Below, one piece after another: positions 1,633-50,453 of a stretch of 64,000 bases of DNA; the first letter of the stretch is position 1, and each line of letters begins with the position of its first letter. The notes beneath the pieces are model-generated. The model was not told the DNA's origin, searched no databases, and was given only the letters and a program-made list of their open reading frames with translations. Both the position numbers and the translations under genes were made by a program. Location of the stretch: contig CAJUHR010000025.1 of NCBI GenBank assembly GCA_910586255.1, forward strand, positions 5,177 through 69,176, given 5' to 3'. Source of the DNA: an uncultured Lachnospiraceae bacterium. Its GTDB lineage: Bacteria > Bacillota > Clostridia > Lachnospirales > Lachnospiraceae.

Positions 1633-1660
1633 TTATTTTTCCTGTGAGAAAGGCCGATAT
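1633..1660 (+). promoter_or_regulatory. sigma-28 (SigD/FliA)-type promoter candidate
   Basis: An exact GCCGATAT octamer at 1653-1660 lies about 100 nt upstream of ATG 1763. The -35 region is only AT-rich (TTAT), not a clean TAAA. Confidence 0.45.
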
Positions 1661-9655: not shown

Positions 9656-9820
9656 GTTTACTTTGCAAAACTTGTAGTATTTTCTGCTTTTTTATGTTAT
9701 AGTATAGAAGTATGACGATTTTTGTCGCTGGGCGGGTCATTTTTGATGGCATTTTGAATGGGATAATCACGGTCATGCGCCGTTGATTATAGATATAATA
9801 ATATGGAAAGGAGGGATTTG

Positions 9821-10975
9821 GTGGAGACAGCAGTGAAATTGCAGACCATGGCATCGGCAAAAACCCAGATAACCGGGCGGCAGGTATCCCAGAAGGCCTC
9901 TGTGGAGAACGGCGATTTTACCAAGCTTTTGCAGGCCAAGAAGGATTTGGCAGACAGTGCAGAGCAGGCCGGCCAGACACAGGCAAAGAAGCCGGATAAG
10001 AATGATAAGGATACCGTGAAAGAGCCTTCCAAAGAGAATCCTGAGGACTCTAAGGCTCCTGTGAAGGAGGAAGAGAATTTAGGACAGCAGGAAGCATTGC
10101 AGCAGGCAGTTCTCATGCAGGCAGCGGTCCAGGTGGTAGAGGTTTTAAAGGAAGAGCCGGAGACTGTGGAAGGGACGATGACAGAGACGGTGGATTTTGC
10201 AAAACCAGTGGATGGCCTGGCGGAGGCAGGCGAGAATATGCCAGTGCCTCAGGATGAAGTAAAAGGAGAGTCTGTTCTTCAGGAGATGACGCCAGTGGCA
10301 GTGGAGAAACCGCCAGAGGAGAGTCAGCCTAAGCCTGTTGCCAATCAGCCTCAGGAGTCTGTGGCGGGCGAGATGAGGATTTCAGACAGGACAGATGCCA
10401 AAGGCCAGGAGAGAGAGAAGGATCTGACTGGTTCCAAAGAGGGACAGACCCGGGAAGAGCCGAAGGTACAAAATAGCCAGGAGCTATATAGCGGAGCATC
10501 CTTCAGAGCAAGCCAGACAGAACATATATTCCGCGATTCTGGACGGGCAGGGGAGATCCCCTTAAGGACTACTCCTCAGACATTGCCAGAAGATCTGGGA
10601 AAGACTCTTGCAGCCAGGTTTCCCGATACAGGAAAGACTCTGACCGTGGAGTTAGAACCGGCATCTCTTGGAAAGCTTACTATTCACATGACCTATGAGG
10701 CCGGGAGAGCGGCAGTGTCTATTATGGCCACAAATCCAAAAACCTTGGAGCTTCTCAGTGAAAAGGTATCGGAGATTGCAGCGATCTTAGAGGAAAAGAC
10801 AGGACAGAATACAGTGGTTCTCACCCAGCAGCCTCAGGAGCAGGAGCAGTATCAGGAGAACAAGGATGGTACAGCTAATCAGGGAGAGAGCAGACAACAG
10901 GAACAGCATCAAAAAGAAGAAAAGGGACAGCACAGCGATTCCTTTGCTCAGCAGCTAAGGCTTGGGCTGGTCTAA
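9821..10975 (+). CDS. fliK: flagellar hook-length control protein FliK
   Basis: The C-terminal Flg_hook-like segment 'LTVELEPASLGKLTIHMTYEAGRAAVSIMATNPKTLELL' follows a disordered N-terminal half rich in E, P and Q. The start is uncertain: ATG 9803, GTG 9821 behind AAGGAGGG, or ATG 9848. Confidence 0.8.
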   Translation: METAVKLQTMASAKTQITGRQVSQKASVENGDFTKLLQAKKDLADSAEQAGQTQAKKPDKNDKDTVKEPSKENPEDSKAPVKEEENLGQQEALQQAVLMQAAVQVVEVLKEEPETVEGTMTETVDFAKPVDGLAEAGENMPVPQDEVKGESVLQEMTPVAVEKPPEESQPKPVANQPQESVAGEMRISDRTDAKGQEREKDLTGSKEGQTREEPKVQNSQELYSGASFRASQTEHIFRDSGRAGEIPLRTTPQTLPEDLGKTLAARFPDTGKTLTVELEPASLGKLTIHMTYEAGRAAVSIMATNPKTLELLSEKVSEIAAILEEKTGQNTVVLTQQPQEQEQYQENKDGTANQGESRQQEQHQKEEKGQHSDSFAQQLRLGLV

Positions 10976-20912: not shown

Positions 20913-21995
20913 GTGGTGAGCTTGGCAGAGTCTGGCGGACAGGAAAAGACCGAGAAACCAACCAGTAAACGGCGGAAGGACGCCCGGAAGGAAGGAAATG
21001 TATTCCAGAGCAGAGATGCCGTGACGGTTGTGATGCTGTTCGGGGTTTTCTATATCCTCAAGCTGGTATTGCCTCTCCTGTATGAGACCATACGGGATTG
21101 TATGGTTTATTTTTTTCGCGCGGTGGGGACTGAGAATCCTTTGGGCTCCTCGCCTCATATTTATGTGTATATGGTGGTGGCGGTATTAAAATGTGCTATG
21201 CCGGTTCTGCTGGCGTCTGTGGTGCTGGGAATCATTGCCCATGGTATACAGACCCGGTTCAATATCAGCTTTCAGGTGCTCCGCCCCAAGTTCAGCAAGT
21301 TAAATCCTATCAGCGGAATCAAGCGCATGTTTGGCATTAAGAAGCTGGTGGATTTGGCAAAGAATCTGATAAAGATTGCACTTTTGATTGCCTTGTTATA
21401 TAATTTATTGAGGACCGATCTGGATGAGATATCCCGGATGTTGGATATGCAGATATATCCATCGACTATCCGGATGCTGGAGATGGTGTTTGAGCTGGTT
21501 CTCAAGGTCTGTGTGGCTTTTACAGTGGTTGCTTTTTTTGATTACCTTTACCAGCGGTGGGATTATGAGAATAATCTGAAGATGACCAAGCAGGAGGTAA
21601 AGGACGAGTACAAGAATACAGAAGGAAATCCGGAGATTAAGGGACGAATCCGGAGAATCCAGCGGCAGATGGCTATGAGCCGCATGATGCAGAAGGTTCC
21701 GGAGGCAGATGTGATTGTGAGAAACCCGACACATTTTGCCGTGGCGCTGAAATACGACCCGGATAAATATGGGGCCCCGGTGGTTCTTGCCAAAGGGCAG
21801 GATGAGCTGGCACTGCGGATTGTGCGTGTCGGTGAGGAACACGGGGTATATGTGATAGAGAACCGGCCGCTGGCCAGGGCTCTCTATGCTTCCTGTGAAC
21901 TGGACCGGGAGATCCCGGCAGAGTTTTATGGGGCAGTGGCAGAGATTCTGGTATATATATACCGGCAAAGCCACAGGGAGGATATGCTCCGGTAG
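20913..21995 (+). CDS. flhB: flagellar export switch protein FlhB
   Basis: N-terminus 'EKTEKPTSKRRKDARKEGNV', four TM segments, and the autocleavage site 'NPTHFAVALKY'. Confidence 0.95.
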   Translation: MVSLAESGGQEKTEKPTSKRRKDARKEGNVFQSRDAVTVVMLFGVFYILKLVLPLLYETIRDCMVYFFRAVGTENPLGSSPHIYVYMVVAVLKCAMPVLLASVVLGIIAHGIQTRFNISFQVLRPKFSKLNPISGIKRMFGIKKLVDLAKNLIKIALLIALLYNLLRTDLDEISRMLDMQIYPSTIRMLEMVFELVLKVCVAFTVVAFFDYLYQRWDYENNLKMTKQEVKDEYKNTEGNPEIKGRIRRIQRQMAMSRMMQKVPEADVIVRNPTHFAVALKYDPDKYGAPVVLAKGQDELALRIVRVGEEHGVYVIENRPLARALYASCELDREIPAEFYGAVAEILVYIYRQSHREDMLR

Positions 21996-24246: not shown

Positions 24247-25017
24247 ATGCTGCCCACGGATTACCTGGAGGAAAAGACCAACGAAGAGCTTTTAGAGATG
24301 TATCGGAAGGAAGGAAAGCTGGAGGTAAAGCAGGCATTGACTCTCCGTCATCTCTACATAGTAAAAACCATTGCCCTTCAGATGCGCAGTGTCTATGCAG
24401 GAACCCTTCAGATGGAAGATATTATCAATGAAGGCGTCATTGCTATTATGAAGGGTATTGACAGATATGACCCGGAGCGGGATAATAAGTTTGAGACCTT
24501 TATATCCCGGAGAATCCGTGGCATGATTATTGATCTGGTCCGCAAAAACGACTGGATGCCCAGAGATTTCCGCAAGCAGGTAAAGTCCATTGAGGATGCC
24601 CGAACGGCCTTGGATCGGGAGCTGGGCCATCCCCCTTCTGATGAGGAGCTGGCGGCTTATGTGGGAATGGATGTCCGCAAATACCGGAAGCTTCAGCGGA
24701 TGAGCGTGATGATGAATGTGCTTTCTCTTGACATGATTACAGATGATGAGGGAGAACACCAGTCATTGCAGCTATCCAGCGGGGATCTGGATTCCCAGCC
24801 GGAGAAAGCCTTTCTTAAGGGAGAGTCCCGTCAGATTCTGGCGGAAGCTATTGAAAGCCTGAAAGAGAAGGAGAAGCTGGTGATCTCCCTGTACTATGTG
24901 GAGGAGCTGAACATGGGCCAGATTGCCCAGATTTTAAAGGTCAGCGAGCCGCGAATTTCCCAGATCCACAGCTCGGCAATCAGAAAGCTCAAGGCATATA
25001 TGAGTAATTATCGCTAG
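24247..25017 (+). CDS. fliA: flagellar sigma factor sigma-28 (FliA/SigD)
   Basis: The sigma-70 family regions 2-4 are present ('YIVKTIALQM', 'FETFISRRIRGMIID', 'MGQIAQILKVSEPRISQIHSSAIRKLK'). It begins 25 nt after flhA. Confidence 0.9.
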   Translation: MLPTDYLEEKTNEELLEMYRKEGKLEVKQALTLRHLYIVKTIALQMRSVYAGTLQMEDIINEGVIAIMKGIDRYDPERDNKFETFISRRIRGMIIDLVRKNDWMPRDFRKQVKSIEDARTALDRELGHPPSDEELAAYVGMDVRKYRKLQRMSVMMNVLSLDMITDDEGEHQSLQLSSGDLDSQPEKAFLKGESRQILAEAIESLKEKEKLVISLYYVEELNMGQIAQILKVSEPRISQIHSSAIRKLKAYMSNYR

Positions 25018-40786: not shown

Positions 40787-41380
40787 CTATGTGAATAGAT
40801 TAATATTACTTCCCGGATTGCCGTCCCGGGGAGGAACATAGTTGAAACCACCCAGATACTCCACATGTACCTGCGGCCTTTGCGTGATAACCGTCATAAC
40901 CAGAGGCGGCAAATAGGTAAGATCACCCCGGGCAACCCGCATCTCAAAGGCGCCTCTCTGTGCCGTATAGGATGTACTTGGATTTACAATCGGATCCGGA
41001 ACAGATGAGGCGGCAGAGGCTGTCACAGCAGGAGCTGAATAAATCTCTGAGGAAGAGGCGGCTGCTGCGACTGTGGCAGACTGTTTCATAACCGGGACAG
41101 AAGGCTGCTGTGCCTTTCTGGAAGCAAGTTGCTGAAACGACACTTCCTGAGCTTGCGGCGTCACATTTGCATTGGCATGGGAGAAGGTCTGATTGATCCT
41201 TGTAAGATCTCCCATAGGAACAGAACCCTGGGTATGAGGGTTGCTCCGATGCATGGATATATGGCGGGCAATTGCTTTTCTTCTTTCAATGTCTACAGAG
41301 TCTGAGCTTACCAGTTTGGCATTCTGGGTAAATCGAACCATCTGTATCGGTTCGGTTGTGATTCTTATTAACGGTCCCAT
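40787..41380 (-). CDS. YviE-like protein (DUF6470-type) between flgL and fliW
   Basis: Its position is identical to B. subtilis yviE. The C-terminus 'GDLTYLPPLVMTVITQRPQVHVEYLGGFNYVPP' fits my recollection of that family. Confidence 0.4.
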   Translation of the reverse strand: MGPLIRITTEPIQMVRFTQNAKLVSSDSVDIERRKAIARHISMHRSNPHTQGSVPMGDLTRINQTFSHANANVTPQAQEVSFQQLASRKAQQPSVPVMKQSATVAAAASSSEIYSAPAVTASAASSVPDPIVNPSTSYTAQRGAFEMRVARGDLTYLPPLVMTVITQRPQVHVEYLGGFNYVPPRDGNPGSNINLFT

Positions 41381-45055: not shown

Positions 45056-45358
45056 TCAGCCTAAGCCAAGCATCCGTCCGGCTATTCTCTGGGCATCGGG
45101 CTGATAAGTTCCATCGGCAATCCTGCGGCCTAACTCCTGCACACGTTCCGGACTGGGGCCGCTGCCAAGCTGGGCAGTGGCTCTGCGGGCTAATATGCGG
45201 GCAAAGCTTTCATCATCGTCCTGGGAAATACGCGTTCTCTGGATATTTACCGTATCATAATCGCCCTTTACCGCTGCCGGCTGAGCCGCCCGCTTGCGCG
45301 GTGTGGAGACCGGCGCGCGATACGGGGTGTTGTTCGTGGTCTGAAATATAACGTTCAT
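45056..45358 (-). CDS. flgM: anti-sigma-28 factor FlgM
   Basis: About 100 aa, with the C-terminus 'RVQELGRRIADGTYQPDAQRIAGRMLG' typical of FlgM. The ATG at 45358 follows AGGGAGGTAGCT. Confidence 0.8.
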   Translation of the reverse strand: MNVIFQTTNNTPYRAPVSTPRKRAAQPAAVKGDYDTVNIQRTRISQDDDESFARILARRATAQLGSGPSPERVQELGRRIADGTYQPDAQRIAGRMLGLG

Positions 45359-45403
45359 AGCTACCTCCCTTCTATGGATGCAGGTAAATCCTATATGTTC
45401 TAA

Positions 45404-45411
45404 ATATCGGC
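45404..45411 (-). promoter_or_regulatory. sigma-28-type -10 box for the flgM operon
   Basis: The minus strand reads GCCGATAT exactly, about 45 nt upstream of the flgM ATG. Confidence 0.5.
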
Positions 45412-45642
45412 AGATTTTCAAAAGACATAACATTGGCTGGGTTTTTTTTGCACAAAATTATAACAAAAACATTTACAACATTTACAAATTTCCAAATATC
45501 GATTTTACCATCTTGTACAAAAAGGGAAAAACGAATATAATACATCTATGGATAAAGAGCGCAATCTGTATCAACAGTCTGTATCAATAGGAAGCGGAAA
45601 AAGAGCTTTTGACGCTTCTGTCATTAATATTAGCCAAAACGC

Positions 45643-45650
45643 GCCGATAT
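45643..45650 (+). promoter_or_regulatory. sigma-28-type -10 box upstream of the FliK-like gene
   Basis: An exact GCCGATAT lies on the plus strand. An AT-rich TTAA/TAAT lies about 15 nt upstream. The box is about 275 nt before ATG 45925. Confidence 0.4.
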
Positions 45651-45924
45651 ATAAAAGATAAGTCTGCGGATATATGATATTAATGTCTGCTCTCAAATCT
45701 TATAAAATCAGGCAATATGTACCCGTGAGCCAAATGATTTGTCAACACGGTTCCTTATTTCAAGATAAGTCACCCAATCATTTGGCAAATAAGTATGCTC
45801 ATGAGTATAAAAATAAATAAAAAGTATTATTTTAAGAGACAGAAGCGACAGGGAAGATTTTCCCGATGGGAATGATGCAGGATCGGTGCCATCGGAACTG
45901 TTGCAGACGGAAGCTGGAGGACAT

Positions 45925-47355
45925 ATGTCAAATATTTTACAGGTGACCACGCCGAATCTGAATACGGACAACCGGAATATATTGAATCCTCAGGATCCCA
46001 GGCAGGCAGGCCAGGCTATCCACAATCCGGTGGATCCCACCCGTGTGGTTCGTGCTGATGGCCGGGACGGGGAACAGACAGGGAACAGTACCCAGGACGA
46101 TCTGTTCAGCGCGATTAATTATGACAGCAATTACGGCGCCTTTGTCAAGGGACTGGGGGAGAACAGTAATCTATCCGGTGTGATGGAGCGTCTCCTGTTT
46201 GGCGATATGGCAGGCCTTAAGGGGGCCGAGCAGGCAGAGGTGAGCGCTCTGGTGGAGCGTTTCCTCATGTCCATGCGTATGGATTCCCCTCAGGATCTTT
46301 TAGAGTATCTCCAGGGGCAGGGGGAGCTGCAGGCCAGATTTTCCGGAGACTTTTTCAGCAAGCTTCGGTCCCTGCTGTCGCAGAATCCCTCTGAGCGTCT
46401 TAAGGAGGCTGTGCTGAACTTTATAAAAGGGTACAACAGCTACTCCTCCGGAGCCCATCTTTTGCAGCAGATGAAGGCTCTGACCGATGATATCGAGCAT
46501 CTTCTCCTGCGGGCTTACCGGGAGGAATTCAGAGGACTGGCCAATTCTATGAACTGGGACGCGGCCAACGGCGACACGGAGGAAAATGCCGGTGTTCTCA
46601 ATCAGAGGCTGATTCCGTTTCTTTCTTCCTATGTATCAAGAACTCATGATTACGGGGCGGTCCGGGAGGCGGCTATGCTCCTGATTTTCCATGCTGTCCG
46701 CTATCAGAACGGAGGGAAGGGCCGGCTGTTTGCCTTATTTGACAGTCTTTTGGGCAACCGGGATTTCGGGAGGCTTTTTAAGGGGGACGCGGAGGCGGAT
46801 ATGGAGCAGCTTCTGATGGCAGGCGCCAAGGAGACTCAGCCGCCCTTGTCGGAATTTGCCGACAATCTTGCCGCTCTTCTTCTAAGGGGGGCCAACGGCC
46901 ACGGCGGCTTGGAGAATGTCCAGCAGTTTTATAATATTATGAACGGTATGCTCATTAATGAGAGCGTTTACATGCCACTTCTCCATTTTATTCTGCCCTT
47001 CCAGTACGAGGACAACAATGTGATGTCGGAGATGTGGGTGGATCCGGACGCCAAAAAGGACAGCGAGGATGAGCCCAGAAAGATCAAGCTTTTTTTGAAG
47101 TTTGATATTCAGACTTTGGGAAAGTTTGAGATGGTGATGACCTTGCAGGATAGGCAGTCCAGGGTTCAGCTTTTTGTGCCGCCGCAGCTAGCCAGACAGA
47201 ATAAACAGATTCAGGCAGAGGTGACGGAGATTCTTAAGAAGAATGGATTCCGGTTCAGCCAGCTTCTGATTCGGGAGCGGATCCGCGACAGGCGGGTGGA
47301 CGAGGTTTTTCCGGAAATTCGGGAGAAGGAGAGAACGATCAATGTCAGAATTTGA
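45925..47355 (+). CDS. FliK-like protein (C-terminal hook-length-control-type domain), 476 aa
   Basis: The C-terminus 'KLFLKFDIQTLGKFEMVMTLQDRQSRVQLFVPPQLARQNKQIQAEVTEILKKNGF' follows the same pattern as the FliK C-terminal domain at 9821..10975. The N-terminus is disordered. The ATG at 45925 follows GGAGGACAT. Confidence 0.45.
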   Translation: MSNILQVTTPNLNTDNRNILNPQDPRQAGQAIHNPVDPTRVVRADGRDGEQTGNSTQDDLFSAINYDSNYGAFVKGLGENSNLSGVMERLLFGDMAGLKGAEQAEVSALVERFLMSMRMDSPQDLLEYLQGQGELQARFSGDFFSKLRSLLSQNPSERLKEAVLNFIKGYNSYSSGAHLLQQMKALTDDIEHLLLRAYREEFRGLANSMNWDAANGDTEENAGVLNQRLIPFLSSYVSRTHDYGAVREAAMLLIFHAVRYQNGGKGRLFALFDSLLGNRDFGRLFKGDAEADMEQLLMAGAKETQPPLSEFADNLAALLLRGANGHGGLENVQQFYNIMNGMLINESVYMPLLHFILPFQYEDNNVMSEMWVDPDAKKDSEDEPRKIKLFLKFDIQTLGKFEMVMTLQDRQSRVQLFVPPQLARQNKQIQAEVTEILKKNGFRFSQLLIRERIRDRRVDEVFPEIREKERTINVRI

Positions 47356-47698
47356 TGATCTGATGCGGCAGAAGGCAGTTGCCCTGAAATATAATCCGGA
47401 CAAGAACGGAGCTCCGGTTATTGTTGCCTCGGGTATGGGATACCTGGCAGAGAAGATTACGGAGACAGCCATGGAGGCAGGGGTGCCGGTCTATGAGGAT
47501 GATTCCCTGGCCACACTTCTGACTCAGCTGCAGCTGGGAGCAGAGATTCCCAGGGAATTGTATCAGGCGATTGTTGATATTTATATCTATTTTTTGGGAT
47601 ATGTACCGGAAAAGAGCGAGATGCCAAAGGAAGAGCAGGAAGAGGAAGAGATGCCTGCCGCCGGGGACGGGGATATTTCTGAAAATACAGGCGGCTGA
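47342..47698 (+). CDS. free-standing FlhB C-terminal subdomain homolog (YlqH/FhlB-like)
   Basis: 'KAVALKYNPDKNGAPVIVASGMGYLAEKI...IPRELYQAIVDIYIYF' aligns with the in-window FlhB segment 'HFAVALKYDPDKYGAPVVLAKGQDELALRI...IPAEFYGAVAEILVYIY'. It overlaps the upstream gene by 14 nt. Confidence 0.8.
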   Translation: MSEFDDLMRQKAVALKYNPDKNGAPVIVASGMGYLAEKITETAMEAGVPVYEDDSLATLLTQLQLGAEIPRELYQAIVDIYIYFLGYVPEKSEMPKEEQEEEEMPAAGDGDISENTGG

Positions 47699-47759
47699 TC
47701 CGGCATGAAGGCTTATGAAATGCCGGAAAGGCCAGAGAGTGATAAGTCAGGAGGATTTT

Positions 47760-49133
47760 ATGGTTCAAAAAATAAAGAGAGCAATGGGGCTTTTGCTGGC
47801 GCTCTGCCTTTTGGCCATGCCCATGGAGGCGCTGGCGGCCACAAAGCCCATCAACAGTGTAAGCGTGAGAGTGTCCTCTAAGCTGGAGGCGGGAAAGAGC
47901 CTGCCGGATATCCAGATTGGTTCGGAGACGGCCGAGGACGGACAGGTGGTGGTGGGAACAAGCAGCGGTTCCTACACCTTGACGGAGGCGGAGTGGGTGG
48001 ACGGCAACACAAAGGAGATAAAGCCCTCCGATGAGCCCAGAATCAAGGTGACCCTTGAGCCGACCGATGTGAGCGAGCATTATTTTCTTGCCAGCTATAA
48101 GTCGTCCAATGTAAAGATCAGCGGCGGATCCTTTGTCTCGGCAAGGCGGGACGGAGATTCCCTGATCGTCACCCTGCGTGTAAAGCCGGTGAAGGGGGAG
48201 TATGATCCGCCCACGGAGGCATACTGGAACGAGAAGAATCTGGGGGAGGCCCGGTGGGAGAAGCCGGAGAATGATTCCGGATATTATGAGCTGCAGCTTT
48301 ACCGGGACGGGAAGAGCGTGCAGAAGGTGGCAAAGACCTCAGCCAAAAGCTACAATTTTTATCCTTATATGACTAAGGAAGGGGATTACAGCTTTAAGGT
48401 GCGGACGATTCCGGGAACGGATGCCCAGAACAAATTCGGGAAAAAGAGCGACTGGATAGAGTCTGGGGAATTGGAGATTACGGACCGGTACGTGTCTGAC
48501 GGAAAGGGACAGCAGTCGGGCAAGCCTTCGGTGGTGAAGGGAACCACGGACACGGTTGGCTGGTTTAAGGAAAATGACCGATGGGGATACCGCTATCCGG
48601 ACGGAAGCCTGTCAAAAGACGGGTGGTCGGAGATTGACGGCTTGTGGTATTATTTTAATGAGGACGGGGTCATGTGCACCGGCTGGAGACCGGTGGGAGG
48701 ACAACAGTATTATCTGTATGACAACGGACAGATGGCAGTGGGCTGGTCAAAAATCGGCGGCTCCTGGTATTATTTCCGGCCGGAGACGGAGGGGACATTC
48801 TTAAAAGGCTCCATGATGACTCCCGGATGGCATGTGATCGGACCTTATTATTATTATTTTAATGGAGACGGAAGCTTGTATACCGGGTGGCTTAAGGAAA
48901 ACGGCAAGACCTATTATCTCAATGAGCTGGACAACAGTCTTCAGGGCACCATGTTTACGGGATGGATCCGCAGAGAGGAAAAGACGTATTTTGCCGATTC
49001 CAACGGGGAGATTTTGGAAGGCTGGAATCAGATAGACGGAAGCTGGTATTATTTTTACCCCGGCTCCGGAGAGATGGCCCGCAACACCCAGGTAGATGGG
49101 TTTACCGTTGATTCGGACGGAATATGGAGATAG
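47760..49133 (+). CDS. secreted protein with an unknown N-terminal domain and C-terminal cell-wall-binding repeats (paralog 1)
   Basis: The signal peptide is 'MGLLLALCLLAMPMEALAA'. There are at least seven 'GW..(I)DG.WYYF...G.M..GW' repeats. The ATG at 47760 follows AGGAGGATTTT. Confidence 0.7.
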   Translation: MVQKIKRAMGLLLALCLLAMPMEALAATKPINSVSVRVSSKLEAGKSLPDIQIGSETAEDGQVVVGTSSGSYTLTEAEWVDGNTKEIKPSDEPRIKVTLEPTDVSEHYFLASYKSSNVKISGGSFVSARRDGDSLIVTLRVKPVKGEYDPPTEAYWNEKNLGEARWEKPENDSGYYELQLYRDGKSVQKVAKTSAKSYNFYPYMTKEGDYSFKVRTIPGTDAQNKFGKKSDWIESGELEITDRYVSDGKGQQSGKPSVVKGTTDTVGWFKENDRWGYRYPDGSLSKDGWSEIDGLWYYFNEDGVMCTGWRPVGGQQYYLYDNGQMAVGWSKIGGSWYYFRPETEGTFLKGSMMTPGWHVIGPYYYYFNGDGSLYTGWLKENGKTYYLNELDNSLQGTMFTGWIRREEKTYFADSNGEILEGWNQIDGSWYYFYPGSGEMARNTQVDGFTVDSDGIWR

Positions 49134-49154: not shown

Positions 49155-50453
49155 ATGCAGAGAGTGATAAAGGCTGGCCGGAGAGGGATTTTGTTTCGGT
49201 CAGGTATATGGATGATGGCGGCCCTTCTTCTGACAGCGGGGAGGGGAGAAGTGAGCTATGGGGCTGAATCCAGCGTCATAGAGAGCCTGAGTGTGACTCT
49301 TAAGAGTACATACGGAGAGCCTGAGGAGATTCCGGAGCCGGAGATTACAATAAGTGGCACCGGCTGTTCTCTGGGAGATGTGCAGTTTCGCACGGATTAT
49401 GATAAGTGGAAGCCTGGCAAGAAAGTCCGGGTGGAGATTACGGTCAATGCAGATGACGGAAAGGTGTTTCCCGCCTCCTTAAACCGCTCCAAATGTAAAA
49501 TATCGGGAGCGGATTTTGTGTCAGCCAAGGCGTTGGATGACGATACACTTCAGGTGAAGGTGGATTACAAGCCGGTGACGGTTTTGGGGGACACGACAGA
49601 GGCCGGCTGGAGTTCATCAAGAAGGCGCGCGGTATGGAAGCCGGTGGACTATGCCCCCGGATATTCTGTGGTTCTGTACGGCAATGACAAGGTGGTCAAA
49701 CGGATGACGGTCACAGGGGCCCACTCGGTCAATCTGACGGAATTCATGGATGATGTGGACAAAACCTACTATTATGAGGTGAAGGCCATTCCGGTTACCT
49801 CCGATGAGAAGAAATATCTAAAGGAAGGGTCTTTTGTCACATCCACGGACCAGGAGTTTGACTGGGAGGACTGGGAGAACTGGAACAGCTCCGGAACCGG
49901 CACAAGCAGCAGTCCGGGAGGCAGCAGCGGGCCGGGAGGAAGCGGCAGCGCGGGCCCGGGAGCCGGGGCCGGAGACGGAGGCTCGGTCAAGGGAAACAAT
50001 TACATCATGCCGGACGGAAGCAAGGCGGTCAACACCTGGAAGAAGATCTCAAACCGCTGGTACTATTTTGACCAGAACGGCAATATGGCAAGAGGCTGGC
50101 AGTATGTAAACGGTTTTTGGTATTATATGGATGGAAACGGGATTATGCAGACCGGATGGATCAACCCTTACGGGGACACCTGGTATTATCTCAACGGCAA
50201 CGGGGATATGTGTGTGGGCTGGATTCAGCCGATTCCGGGTGAGTGGTATTATCTGGACGGCTCAGGGGCCATGCAGAGGTACTGGGTTTTGGTAAACGGC
50301 AAATGGTATTTCATGAACCAGAGCGGCCGGATGCAGACCGGATGGATTCAGGCGGACGGCAAATGGTATTTTCTTAACAGCGATGGCAGCATGGCGGCCA
50401 ACACGGAGGTCAGCGGCCGCAGGCTGGGGCCTGACGGAGCAGAGATTCGGTGA
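49155..50453 (+). CDS. secreted protein with an unknown N-terminal domain and C-terminal cell-wall-binding repeats (paralog 2)
   Basis: It has a hydrophobic N-terminus. Its N-terminal domain is collinear with paralog 1 ('ISGADFVSAKALDDDTLQVKVDYKPV' versus 'ISGGSFVSARRDGDSLIVTLRVKPV'). A Gly/Ser/Pro linker precedes the cell-wall-binding repeats. Confidence 0.7.
   Translation: MQRVIKAGRRGILFRSGIWMMAALLLTAGRGEVSYGAESSVIESLSVTLKSTYGEPEEIPEPEITISGTGCSLGDVQFRTDYDKWKPGKKVRVEITVNADDGKVFPASLNRSKCKISGADFVSAKALDDDTLQVKVDYKPVTVLGDTTEAGWSSSRRRAVWKPVDYAPGYSVVLYGNDKVVKRMTVTGAHSVNLTEFMDDVDKTYYYEVKAIPVTSDEKKYLKEGSFVTSTDQEFDWEDWENWNSSGTGTSSSPGGSSGPGGSGSAGPGAGAGDGGSVKGNNYIMPDGSKAVNTWKKISNRWYYFDQNGNMARGWQYVNGFWYYMDGNGIMQTGWINPYGDTWYYLNGNGDMCVGWIQPIPGEWYYLDGSGAMQRYWVLVNGKWYFMNQSGRMQTGWIQADGKWYFLNSDGSMAANTEVSGRRLGPDGAEIR

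Follow-up and report, generated by a model that had tools for sequence, protein, structure and literature searches.

The switch in flagellar export specificity depends on a contact between two proteins: the T3S4 domain of FliK touches the C-terminal part of FlhB (FlhB-C), as in Salmonella FliK-FlhB and in YscP-YscU, and flips the specificity of export. FlhB cleaves itself, and its CC subdomain (FlhB-CC) is held non-covalently after autocleavage. A small FlhB-CC-like protein was reportedly named FlhX by Pallen et al. in 2005, and Cj0848c of C. jejuni is an FlhX as well. Here we analyze a 64,000-nucleotide (nt) stretch of contig CAJUHR010000025.1 from an uncultured Lachnospiraceae bacterium (the window), in which open reading frame (ORF) A, encoding 476 amino acids (aa; 45925..47355, plus strand), is followed directly by ORF B, encoding a 118-aa, FlhX/YlqH-type, free-standing FlhB-CC subdomain (47342..47698, plus strand; Bac_export_2, TIGR00789 and BLASTP matches). 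This pair is very probably the Lachnospiraceae version of a conserved module composed of a FliK-like protein and FlhX, known as ylqG-ylqH in Bacillus and fliK2-flhX in Pseudomonas.

The initial annotation knew of no functional characterization of such pairs. Pairs of this kind have, however, been described: FlhX has had a name since 2005 and has been tested in H. pylori, the fliK2-flhX pair of P. putida is FliA-dependent, and Bacillus ylqG-ylqH has the same arrangement. H. pylori HP1575/FlhX is a 'spare part' for FlhB-CC according to the title of Wand et al. 2006, as listed in PMC3040844, and to the summary in a preprint (bioRxiv 10.1101/2021.08.29.457346). The same preprint describes P. putida PP_4328 (fliK2, with a FliK C-terminal domain) and PP_4329 (flhX) as one operon with a FliA-dependent promoter; its authors call the function of the two genes uncharacterized. 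An flhX-fliK pair is mentioned in Nitratiruptor (PMC9321776), FlhX serves as a standard query for the export apparatus (PMC10746217), and ylqG is said to be 'rarely reported' (PMC9018123). Members of several bacterial phyla have FlhX and FliK-like partners, which now routinely appear in lists of flagellar export components; the functional data are limited to the 'spare part' result in H. pylori and to FliA dependence in P. putida. Because the P. putida, Nitratiruptor and H. pylori cases are already published, the pair in the window is a divergent, lineage-specific member of a described module. What is gained is annotation and a hypothesis, not a new kind of system, and a specialist will find little surprise in it.

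We set the start of ORF A at ATG 45925 because its homologues all begin at the methionine of an MxNIL motif, as seen in their alignment. A Shine-Dalgarno sequence read from the DNA, GGAGG, lies 4 nt before this ATG (45916..45920, plus strand), and an in-frame GTG at 45886 is an alternative start that would add 13 residues, for a total of 489 aa. The end of ORF A and the start of ORF B overlap by 14 nt (ATGTCAGAATTTGA, 47342..47355, plus strand), as first described, and this overlap suggests that translation of the two ORFs is coupled.

The two genes also co-occur. We collected 80 loci (L001-L080) from different Lachnospiraceae species, including Hungatella, Enterocloster, Oribacterium, Hominisplanchenecus and others, with 43-94% identity. 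In all 80, the gene after the ORF A homologue is an FlhX ORF, and the 14-nt overlap is the commonest arrangement. Among distant loci (21-25% identity), the pair is kept in four of the five that are informative (L081, L094/L095, L096 and L098), with an overlap of 14 nt in L081, L094, L095 and L096 and of 23 nt in L098; L082 is too short to judge pairing and was left out of this count. Among 120 listed homologues each of ORF A and ORF B, precomputed Pfam annotations showed no fusion of ORF A with FlhX.

ORF B is, as judged from its alignments, the counterpart of the FlhB-CC fragment that remains after cleavage and a member of the FlhX/YlqH family. The Pfam profile Bac_export_2 matches residues 12-83 of ORF B on profile positions 262-334 of 335 only (E 8e-20), and the same residues are 48% identical to residues 276-348 of the canonical FlhB encoded in the window (BLASTP, E 1e-16). 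This FlhB (20913..21995, plus strand) matches Bac_export_2 over its full length (E 1.8e-129); its NPTH motif stands at residues 271-274 and is followed by FAVALKYDPDKYGAPV, which includes FAVALKY, and the counterpart in ORF B is MSEFDDLMRQKAVALKYNPDKNGAPV. ORF B starts MSEFDDLMRQKAVALKY, with the N-terminus MSEFDDLMRQK directly before AVALKY. In an alignment with four other FlhX and two FlhB proteins, the VIVxNPTH segment is missing in ORF B, and the starts of ORF B, of the Bacillus and Acetoanaerobium FlhX proteins and of a distant metagenomic homologue all lie 8-10 residues ahead of one common strand. ORF B retains the core of FlhB-CC, with both its GAP motif and its C-terminal helix. Because the match is confined to the part of Bac_export_2 after NPTH, we conclude that ORF B is without the transmembrane (TM) region, the CN subdomain and NPTH. 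The initial annotation was thus right to describe a small protein that aligns with FlhB immediately after NPTH and has neither a TM domain nor the cleavage motif, and the Bac_export_2 search agrees with it.

Within its family, ORF B is divergent. The best NCBIfam model is TIGR00789 (flhB_rel, 'FlhB-like flagellar biosynthesis protein'), which scores 88.0 bits, under its cutoff of 117.35; since this is still the best-scoring model, we count ORF B in the family, as a divergent member. It is like other FlhX/YlqH/TIGR00789 proteins in its size (~90-120 aa), in its homology to FlhB-CC alone, in starting a few residues before AVALKY and in being without TM, CN and NPTH. It differs from Bacillus and Acetoanaerobium FlhX in the alignment by an acidic, low-complexity C-terminal tail of 34 residues (residues 85-118; 47594..47695, plus strand), which is variable in length; homologous ORFs in related loci range from 96 to 244 aa. 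We found 1641 homologues of ORF B, and among the matches listed the source names are 'type III secretion protein' or 'EscU/YscU/HrcU ... switch protein'. The FlhX homologue in L098 (5553-5852) is 99 aa long and 39% identical; its N-terminus is missing the AVALKY strand, and no Pfam match is precomputed for it.

The case for a FliK-like partner centers on the C-terminus of ORF A, which is likely to form a divergent T3S4/FliK_C-type domain because of its top structural match, weak Flg_hook matches in its family and C-terminal similarity to other FlhX partners. Two AlphaFold models were built independently, the second (model 2) from a diverse 36-sequence alignment (mean predicted local distance difference test score, pLDDT, 73.7; predicted template modeling score 0.61). 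Residues 353-451 (46981..47277, plus strand; pLDDT 74-93) are predicted to form a T3S4/FliK_C-like beta-hairpin plus beta-beta-beta-alpha-beta unit, and the order of elements in residues 386-451 is that of Flg_hook. For both models, the top match among 350,542 PDB chains is 5cuk, the T3S4 domain of the substrate-specificity-switch protein PscP (Foldseek probability 1.00; E 0.07 and 0.1; TM-score 0.58 and 0.48). The FliK C-terminal domain, 2rrl, is matched with probability 0.90 and E 1.1.

Sequence profiles point the same way. Flg_hook is the commonest weak Pfam match in the ORF A family, found in 4 of 36 members (best E 0.012). The Acetoanaerobium noterae protein encoded directly upstream of FlhX scores 29.4 bits with Flg_hook (cutoff 29.8) and 30.2 bits with DUF6240 (PF19753), and its relatives in Peptostreptococcales (the A4 family) are already annotated with PF02120. 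The C-terminal 130 columns of the ORF A and A4 families are colinear over 92 columns (hhalign, P 0.0018), with a score of 24.3, whereas the best of 200 column shuffles reached 21.9; an LPFQ motif is common to both C-termini. Similarly, the C-terminus of ORF A aligns with YlqG of Bacillus velezensis along 124 columns that reach the final residue (hhalign, P 0.0029; 0/60 shuffles as good), and this alignment is limited to the C-terminal region.

Several results weigh against calling ORF A FliK-like. In the scan of window proteins, it has no Pfam match at E<=1 and no NCBIfam match, and the Foldseek E values of 0.07-0.1 are non-significant alone. The canonical FliK of the window (9803..10975, plus strand; Flg_hook E 3.4e-9 over residues 270-344), which lies in a hook operon fliJ-fliK-flgD-flgE beside FliJ, FlgD and FlgE, is not matched significantly by ORF A in BLASTP (E 1.7) or in hhalign with two family profiles (E 0.42 in one of them), nor by the C-terminus of ORF A in hhalign (P 0.18, with 5/60 shuffles as good); two of the profile alignments, themselves non-significant, place ORF A 389-439 on FliK 280-331, inside the Flg_hook match. 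This comparison to a single sequence has little power, because the Flg_hook-positive A4 family also fails against the same FliK. Furthermore, the term 'FliK-like' covers only ~100 residues of ORF A, because the N-terminal two thirds are unrelated to FliK, YlqG and A4. The C-terminal pattern that the initial annotation saw in ORF A and the window's FliK is therefore not significant in pairwise comparison, although structure prediction and bridging homology make a FliK_C/T3S4-type end likely; a Flg_hook search fails with ORF A itself and gives weak matches in its family.

ORF A belongs to an unannotated family. Among the matches listed from its 562 close homologues, all are 'hypothetical protein' entries from Lachnospiraceae with no Pfam domain. 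An exhaustive profile search yielded 539 clusters at 50% identity (E<=1e-3), and because this many clusters match, the family is, by its sequences, a sizeable unannotated one in Clostridia; identifying it as the partner of FlhX in these Clostridia is the gain in annotation. Residues 1-67 (45925..46125, plus strand) are predicted to be disordered (pLDDT <50), yet they are strongly conserved, with the pattern M[AS]NILQVTTPN...VDPTRVVR.DG. The invariant columns among close homologues are M1, N3-T8, P10, N16, R17, D37, P38, R40-R43 and D45, and the motif is retained across 113 family representatives. The N-terminus was thus correctly recognized as disordered at the outset, but the word needs qualifying for one of the most conserved segments of the protein.

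Residues 69-344 (46129..46956, plus strand) are predicted to form an all-helical folded domain (pLDDT 65-94 in model 2). A structure search with this domain gave no significant PDB match, profile searches of PDB sequences with ORF A family alignments gave only chance-level helical matches (STU2 and others), and profile comparison of the N-terminal and helical parts with the A4 family, which bears Flg_hook, found no similarity. DUF6240 is absent from ORF A and is not among the 25 most-matched families of 36 family members. ORF A is therefore best described, with the caution due to structural models, as having three parts: an N-terminus that is disordered yet conserved, a helical domain, and a T3S4/FliK_C-like C-terminal domain with a conserved tail. 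We considered whether ORF A is a FliK paralogue overall and rejected this, given a 275-residue folded helical domain in place of the disordered ruler and the failure of Flg_hook; predicted disorder is confined to residues 1-67, whereas FliK has a long unstructured ruler. Of the 'paralog pair' first proposed, then, the FlhB-CC homologue stands but the FliK paralogue, taken as a whole protein, does not.

A loop in the helical domain at about residues 208-220 (46546-46584) is a hot spot for insertion, with split matches and long insertions in 13 of 150 listed representatives. Proline/glycine-rich 'MPDG[ST]' repeats of 100-390 residues are inserted between the halves of the helical domain, as in P0185 (846 aa) and P0221 (650 aa), although the insertion in P0185 sits nearer residue 300. 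The variable length of these insertions recalls ruler proteins.

These features raise the possibility, in our view an unlikely one, that ORF A is a late substrate or second ruler that leaves through the flagellar type III gate by means of its N-terminus, and that FlhX is its cytoplasmic chaperone or mask, shielding nascent export gates from premature contact with the T3S4 domain. A disordered yet conserved N-terminus of 67 residues would fit an export signal or a partner-binding peptide, but its conservation exceeds by far what type III signals usually show. Similarly, the length variation of the P/G-rich insertions is reminiscent of rulers, whereas residues 69-344 are confidently predicted to be folded and helical, unlike the extended ruler of FliK. 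Translational coupling would suit a chaperone and its substrate; FlhB-CC, however, is no known chaperone fold.

The pair can be set beside those already described. The order of genes is the same as in P. putida fliK2-flhX, with a FliK_C-domain protein followed by FlhX; the phylum and the N-terminal architecture are different. PP_4328 is described as recognized by InterPro IPR021136, whereas ORF A fails Pfam Flg_hook. In Bacillus (ylqG-ylqH) and Peptostreptococcales (a DUF6240 plus Flg_hook protein, then FlhX), a protein of 500-570 aa is likewise encoded immediately upstream of FlhX and shows homology to ORF A in its C-terminal ~125 residues. Over their N-terminal two thirds, these partners are unrelated to ORF A, which is without DUF6240, and the spacing differs: a 4-nt overlap in Bacillus, a 3-nt gap in Acetoanaerobium and the 14-nt overlap here. 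The Bacillus and Acetoanaerobium pairs sit after ylqF-rnhB, away from flagellar genes.

Three observations fit a flagellar module of this kind less well. The Bacillus pair lies among housekeeping genes (ylqF-rnhB...sucCD) and not flagellar ones, the distant ORF A family member in L097 has no adjoining flhX, and flhX of H. pylori is not known to lie next to a fliK-like gene. Two of the comparison loci come from PLSDB 'plasmids', L083 (NZ_CP083716.1, B. velezensis, 807 kb, with rplS-ylqF-rnhB-sucCD-topA) and L084 (NZ_CP154629.1, Acetoanaerobium, 2.6 Mb), that are apparently chromosomes or pieces of them. In L083, the YlqG homologue is annotated as 'glycosyl transferase', a name for which its sequence gives no support; it has only a weak Tex55 match.

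To place the pair in the flagellar program, we looked at its upstream region. A candidate promoter of the sigma-28 (FliA/SigD) type lies at 45624..45650 (plus strand), composed of TTAAT at 45624-45628, a 14-nt spacer and GCCGATAT at 45643-45650, about 275 nt upstream of the start of ORF A. By established consensus, GCCGATAT is the -10 element of sigma-28/SigD promoters. The same element, with cTAAT or tTAAT 15-16 nt upstream, occurs within 450 nt before the orthologue in 49 of 78 related loci whose flanks have otherwise diverged, so the -10 box noticed by the initial annotation is confirmed and recurs in relatives. There are seven GCCGATA sites in the window and only three are intergenic; these precede ORF A, flgM and a FliD_C ORF, all late flagellar genes. 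Because the motif is conserved and the intergenic sites all precede late genes, late, FliA-dependent expression of the pair is likely. FliA dependence has been shown for P. putida fliK2-flhX, whereas its counterpart here is the conserved sigma-28-type motif only.

The second intergenic site (45404..45411, minus strand) is a candidate -10 box for the divergent flgM-flgN-flgK-flgL genes, identified by the motif and by FlgM family matches. The flgM ORF as listed (45056-45433, minus strand) probably has its true start at ATG 45358, codon 26 of the listed frame; the minus-strand GCCGATAT falls within the surplus 5' part. Because this start leaves the element outside the gene, the spacer 45359-45924 seems to hold two divergent sigma-28-type promoters. 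The third site (1653..1660, plus strand) precedes a 301-aa FliD_C ORF (1763-2668) and is likely another sigma-28 promoter. A gene for a FliA/WhiG sigma factor lies at 24247..25017 (TIGR02479, 222 bits compared to a cutoff of 190). The leader of ORF A (45651-45924) is long, at about 275 nt; in most related loci it measures 40-160 nt, and in L001, which is 94% identical, 122 nt. No Rfam family was matched in scans of this leader or of the whole window.

How might the module act? We tentatively propose, by analogy to the canonical switch, that ORF A and FlhX form a soluble complex that is made late and acts on the export gate. Both genes would be transcribed only once completion of the hook-basal body frees FliA, and the two proteins would be made at ~1:1 via translational coupling. 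Together they would recreate, in a soluble complex, the FliK_C-FlhB_C contact of the specificity switch, and the late-state export gate would be the target of this complex or of FlhX freed from it. It could stabilize or lock filament-type export, swap with the non-covalently held FlhB-CC or titrate leftover hook-type substrates. The domain types are those of canonical FliK-FlhB_C and YscP/PscP-YscU, namely T3S4 and FlhB-CC. In contrast to those systems, both partners are predicted to be soluble and are encoded together, there is no autocleavage site, a predicted folded helical domain replaces the ruler, and the pair is predicted to be expressed late and not together with the hook genes; canonical FliK and FlhB have genes of their own elsewhere in the window. 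Taken as a whole, with the identity of the module and the proposed mechanism together, we consider this explanation reasonably probable.

The proposed action on a late-state gate can be compared to a simpler use of FlhX, in which it docks on the TM-CN part of FlhB and replaces or supplements the cleaved FlhB-CC, as in H. pylori, and ORF A delivers or stabilizes it. FlhX does retain the FlhB-CC core, and FlhB-CC is held only non-covalently after cleavage, but no replacement is needed here because the FlhB in the window is complete with an intact NPTH. Nor would such a role explain the T3S4-like domain of the partner or the sigma-28 dependence that the motif predicts for the pair. The effect of H. 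pylori FlhX is reportedly seen only when FlhB-CC is deleted, which counts further against this possibility. We therefore rate it as quite unlikely despite the H. pylori precedent (title of Wand et al. 2006 in PMC3040844; summary in the P. putida preprint). It is very unlikely that ORF A has nothing to do with FliK and carries a generic small alpha/beta fold with some other role (e.g. scaffold or regulator) that merely needs FlhX: its missing Pfam match, its Foldseek E of 0.07-0.1 with MamM CTD (C-terminal domain) and other small alpha/beta domains also matched and its non-significant comparison to the window's FliK would allow this, but the same T3S4 structure tops 350,542 chains for two independent models, Flg_hook is the commonest weak match in the family, similarity to FlhX partners bearing Flg_hook is significant and the P. 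putida partner also has a FliK C-terminal domain.

The functional question narrows to the contact between T3S4 and FlhB-CC, since the partners in different lineages share only the T3S4-like domain and the C-terminal tail. In addition, because the sigma-28 motif is conserved in these Firmicutes as in Pseudomonas, the module would be placed after hook completion. The pair could thus offer an entry point to how the export gate is handled once specificity has switched.

The tail itself is conserved. Residues 469-476 of ORF A (47329..47352, plus strand; EKERTINVRI tail) carry a C-terminal pentapeptide of the form [IV]-[ND]-V-x-[VI]-COOH that is unpacked in the monomer model (pLDDT 27). A hydrophobic-polar-hydrophobic-x-hydrophobic C-terminus is present in 106 of 113 family representatives, with [IV]-[ND]-V-x-[VI] dominant, and YlqG ends in VDVKI where ORF A ends in INVRI. 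FlhX is without the beta1 strand that FlhB-CN supplies to the FlhB-C sheet, and the pentapeptide resembles the FlhB strand A-[DT]-V-[VI]-[VI]-x-NPTH. It is conceivable, though we think it doubtful, that the tail completes FlhX by strand complementation and that the gene boundary mimics the FlhB autocleavage site. If true, the pair would amount to a 'pre-cleaved' FlhB-C in which a T3S4 switch domain replaces the membrane anchor, a soluble module that is constitutively 'switched'.

Chimeras of tail, NPTH and FlhX core scored 87.3 bits with Bac_export_2 compared to 83.9-85.3 with shuffled tails, and 90.4 compared to 84.2-88.7. In a family-level test of 106 tails against 10 FlhB sequences, similarity was found over the last 4-5 residues only (p = 0.054). 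We also considered whether the last 28 residues of ORF A mimic the helix plus strand of FlhB-CN, as the alignment of a chimera to Bac_export_2 228-256 had it; the helix part was rejected as compositional because the family-level similarity is limited to those 4-5 residues. The last 14 nt of ORF A are dual-coding, a possible extra constraint on the tail, and Bacillus keeps the motif despite an overlap of only 4 nt.

The window holds a complete flagellar operon with canonical FliK, and also FlhB and FlhA. ORF A adjoins flgM, 35 kb from the hook operon, whose usual fliK position is held by the canonical gene; flgM, flgN, flgK, flgL and fliW are transcribed divergently from ORF A. The divergent flgM-flgN-flgK block is conserved in about 75 of the 80 Lachnospiraceae loci. 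In the distant loci, the pair is surrounded by cheA-cheR-cheB, PilZ and fliD genes, and so the module, as gene order indicates, is one that shifts between motility neighborhoods. In L081, L096 and L098, a PilZ-domain (YcgR-like) gene comes after the pair, with cheA-cheR-cheB and fliD flanking. A 197-aa ORF between fliW and flgL (40787-41380, minus strand) has no Pfam or NCBIfam match.

Downstream of flhX, two paralogous genes (47715-49133 and 49155-50453, plus strand) encode secreted proteins that end in choline/cell-wall-binding repeats and whose N-terminal ~270 aa match no family. The first begins 17 nt after flhX with no terminator between, and both are found 3' of flhX in 48 of 80 related loci, including Oribacterium. 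Because of the short gap, the missing terminator and the kept position, these genes may be part of the same late operon as ORF A and flhX. Finally, L054 (JAWZDV010000052.1) is labeled 'MAG: Bacteroides thetaiotaomicron' but carries a Lachnospiraceae-type locus, with 51% identity to ORF A and with flgM/N/K and flhX; the label is probably a binning error.

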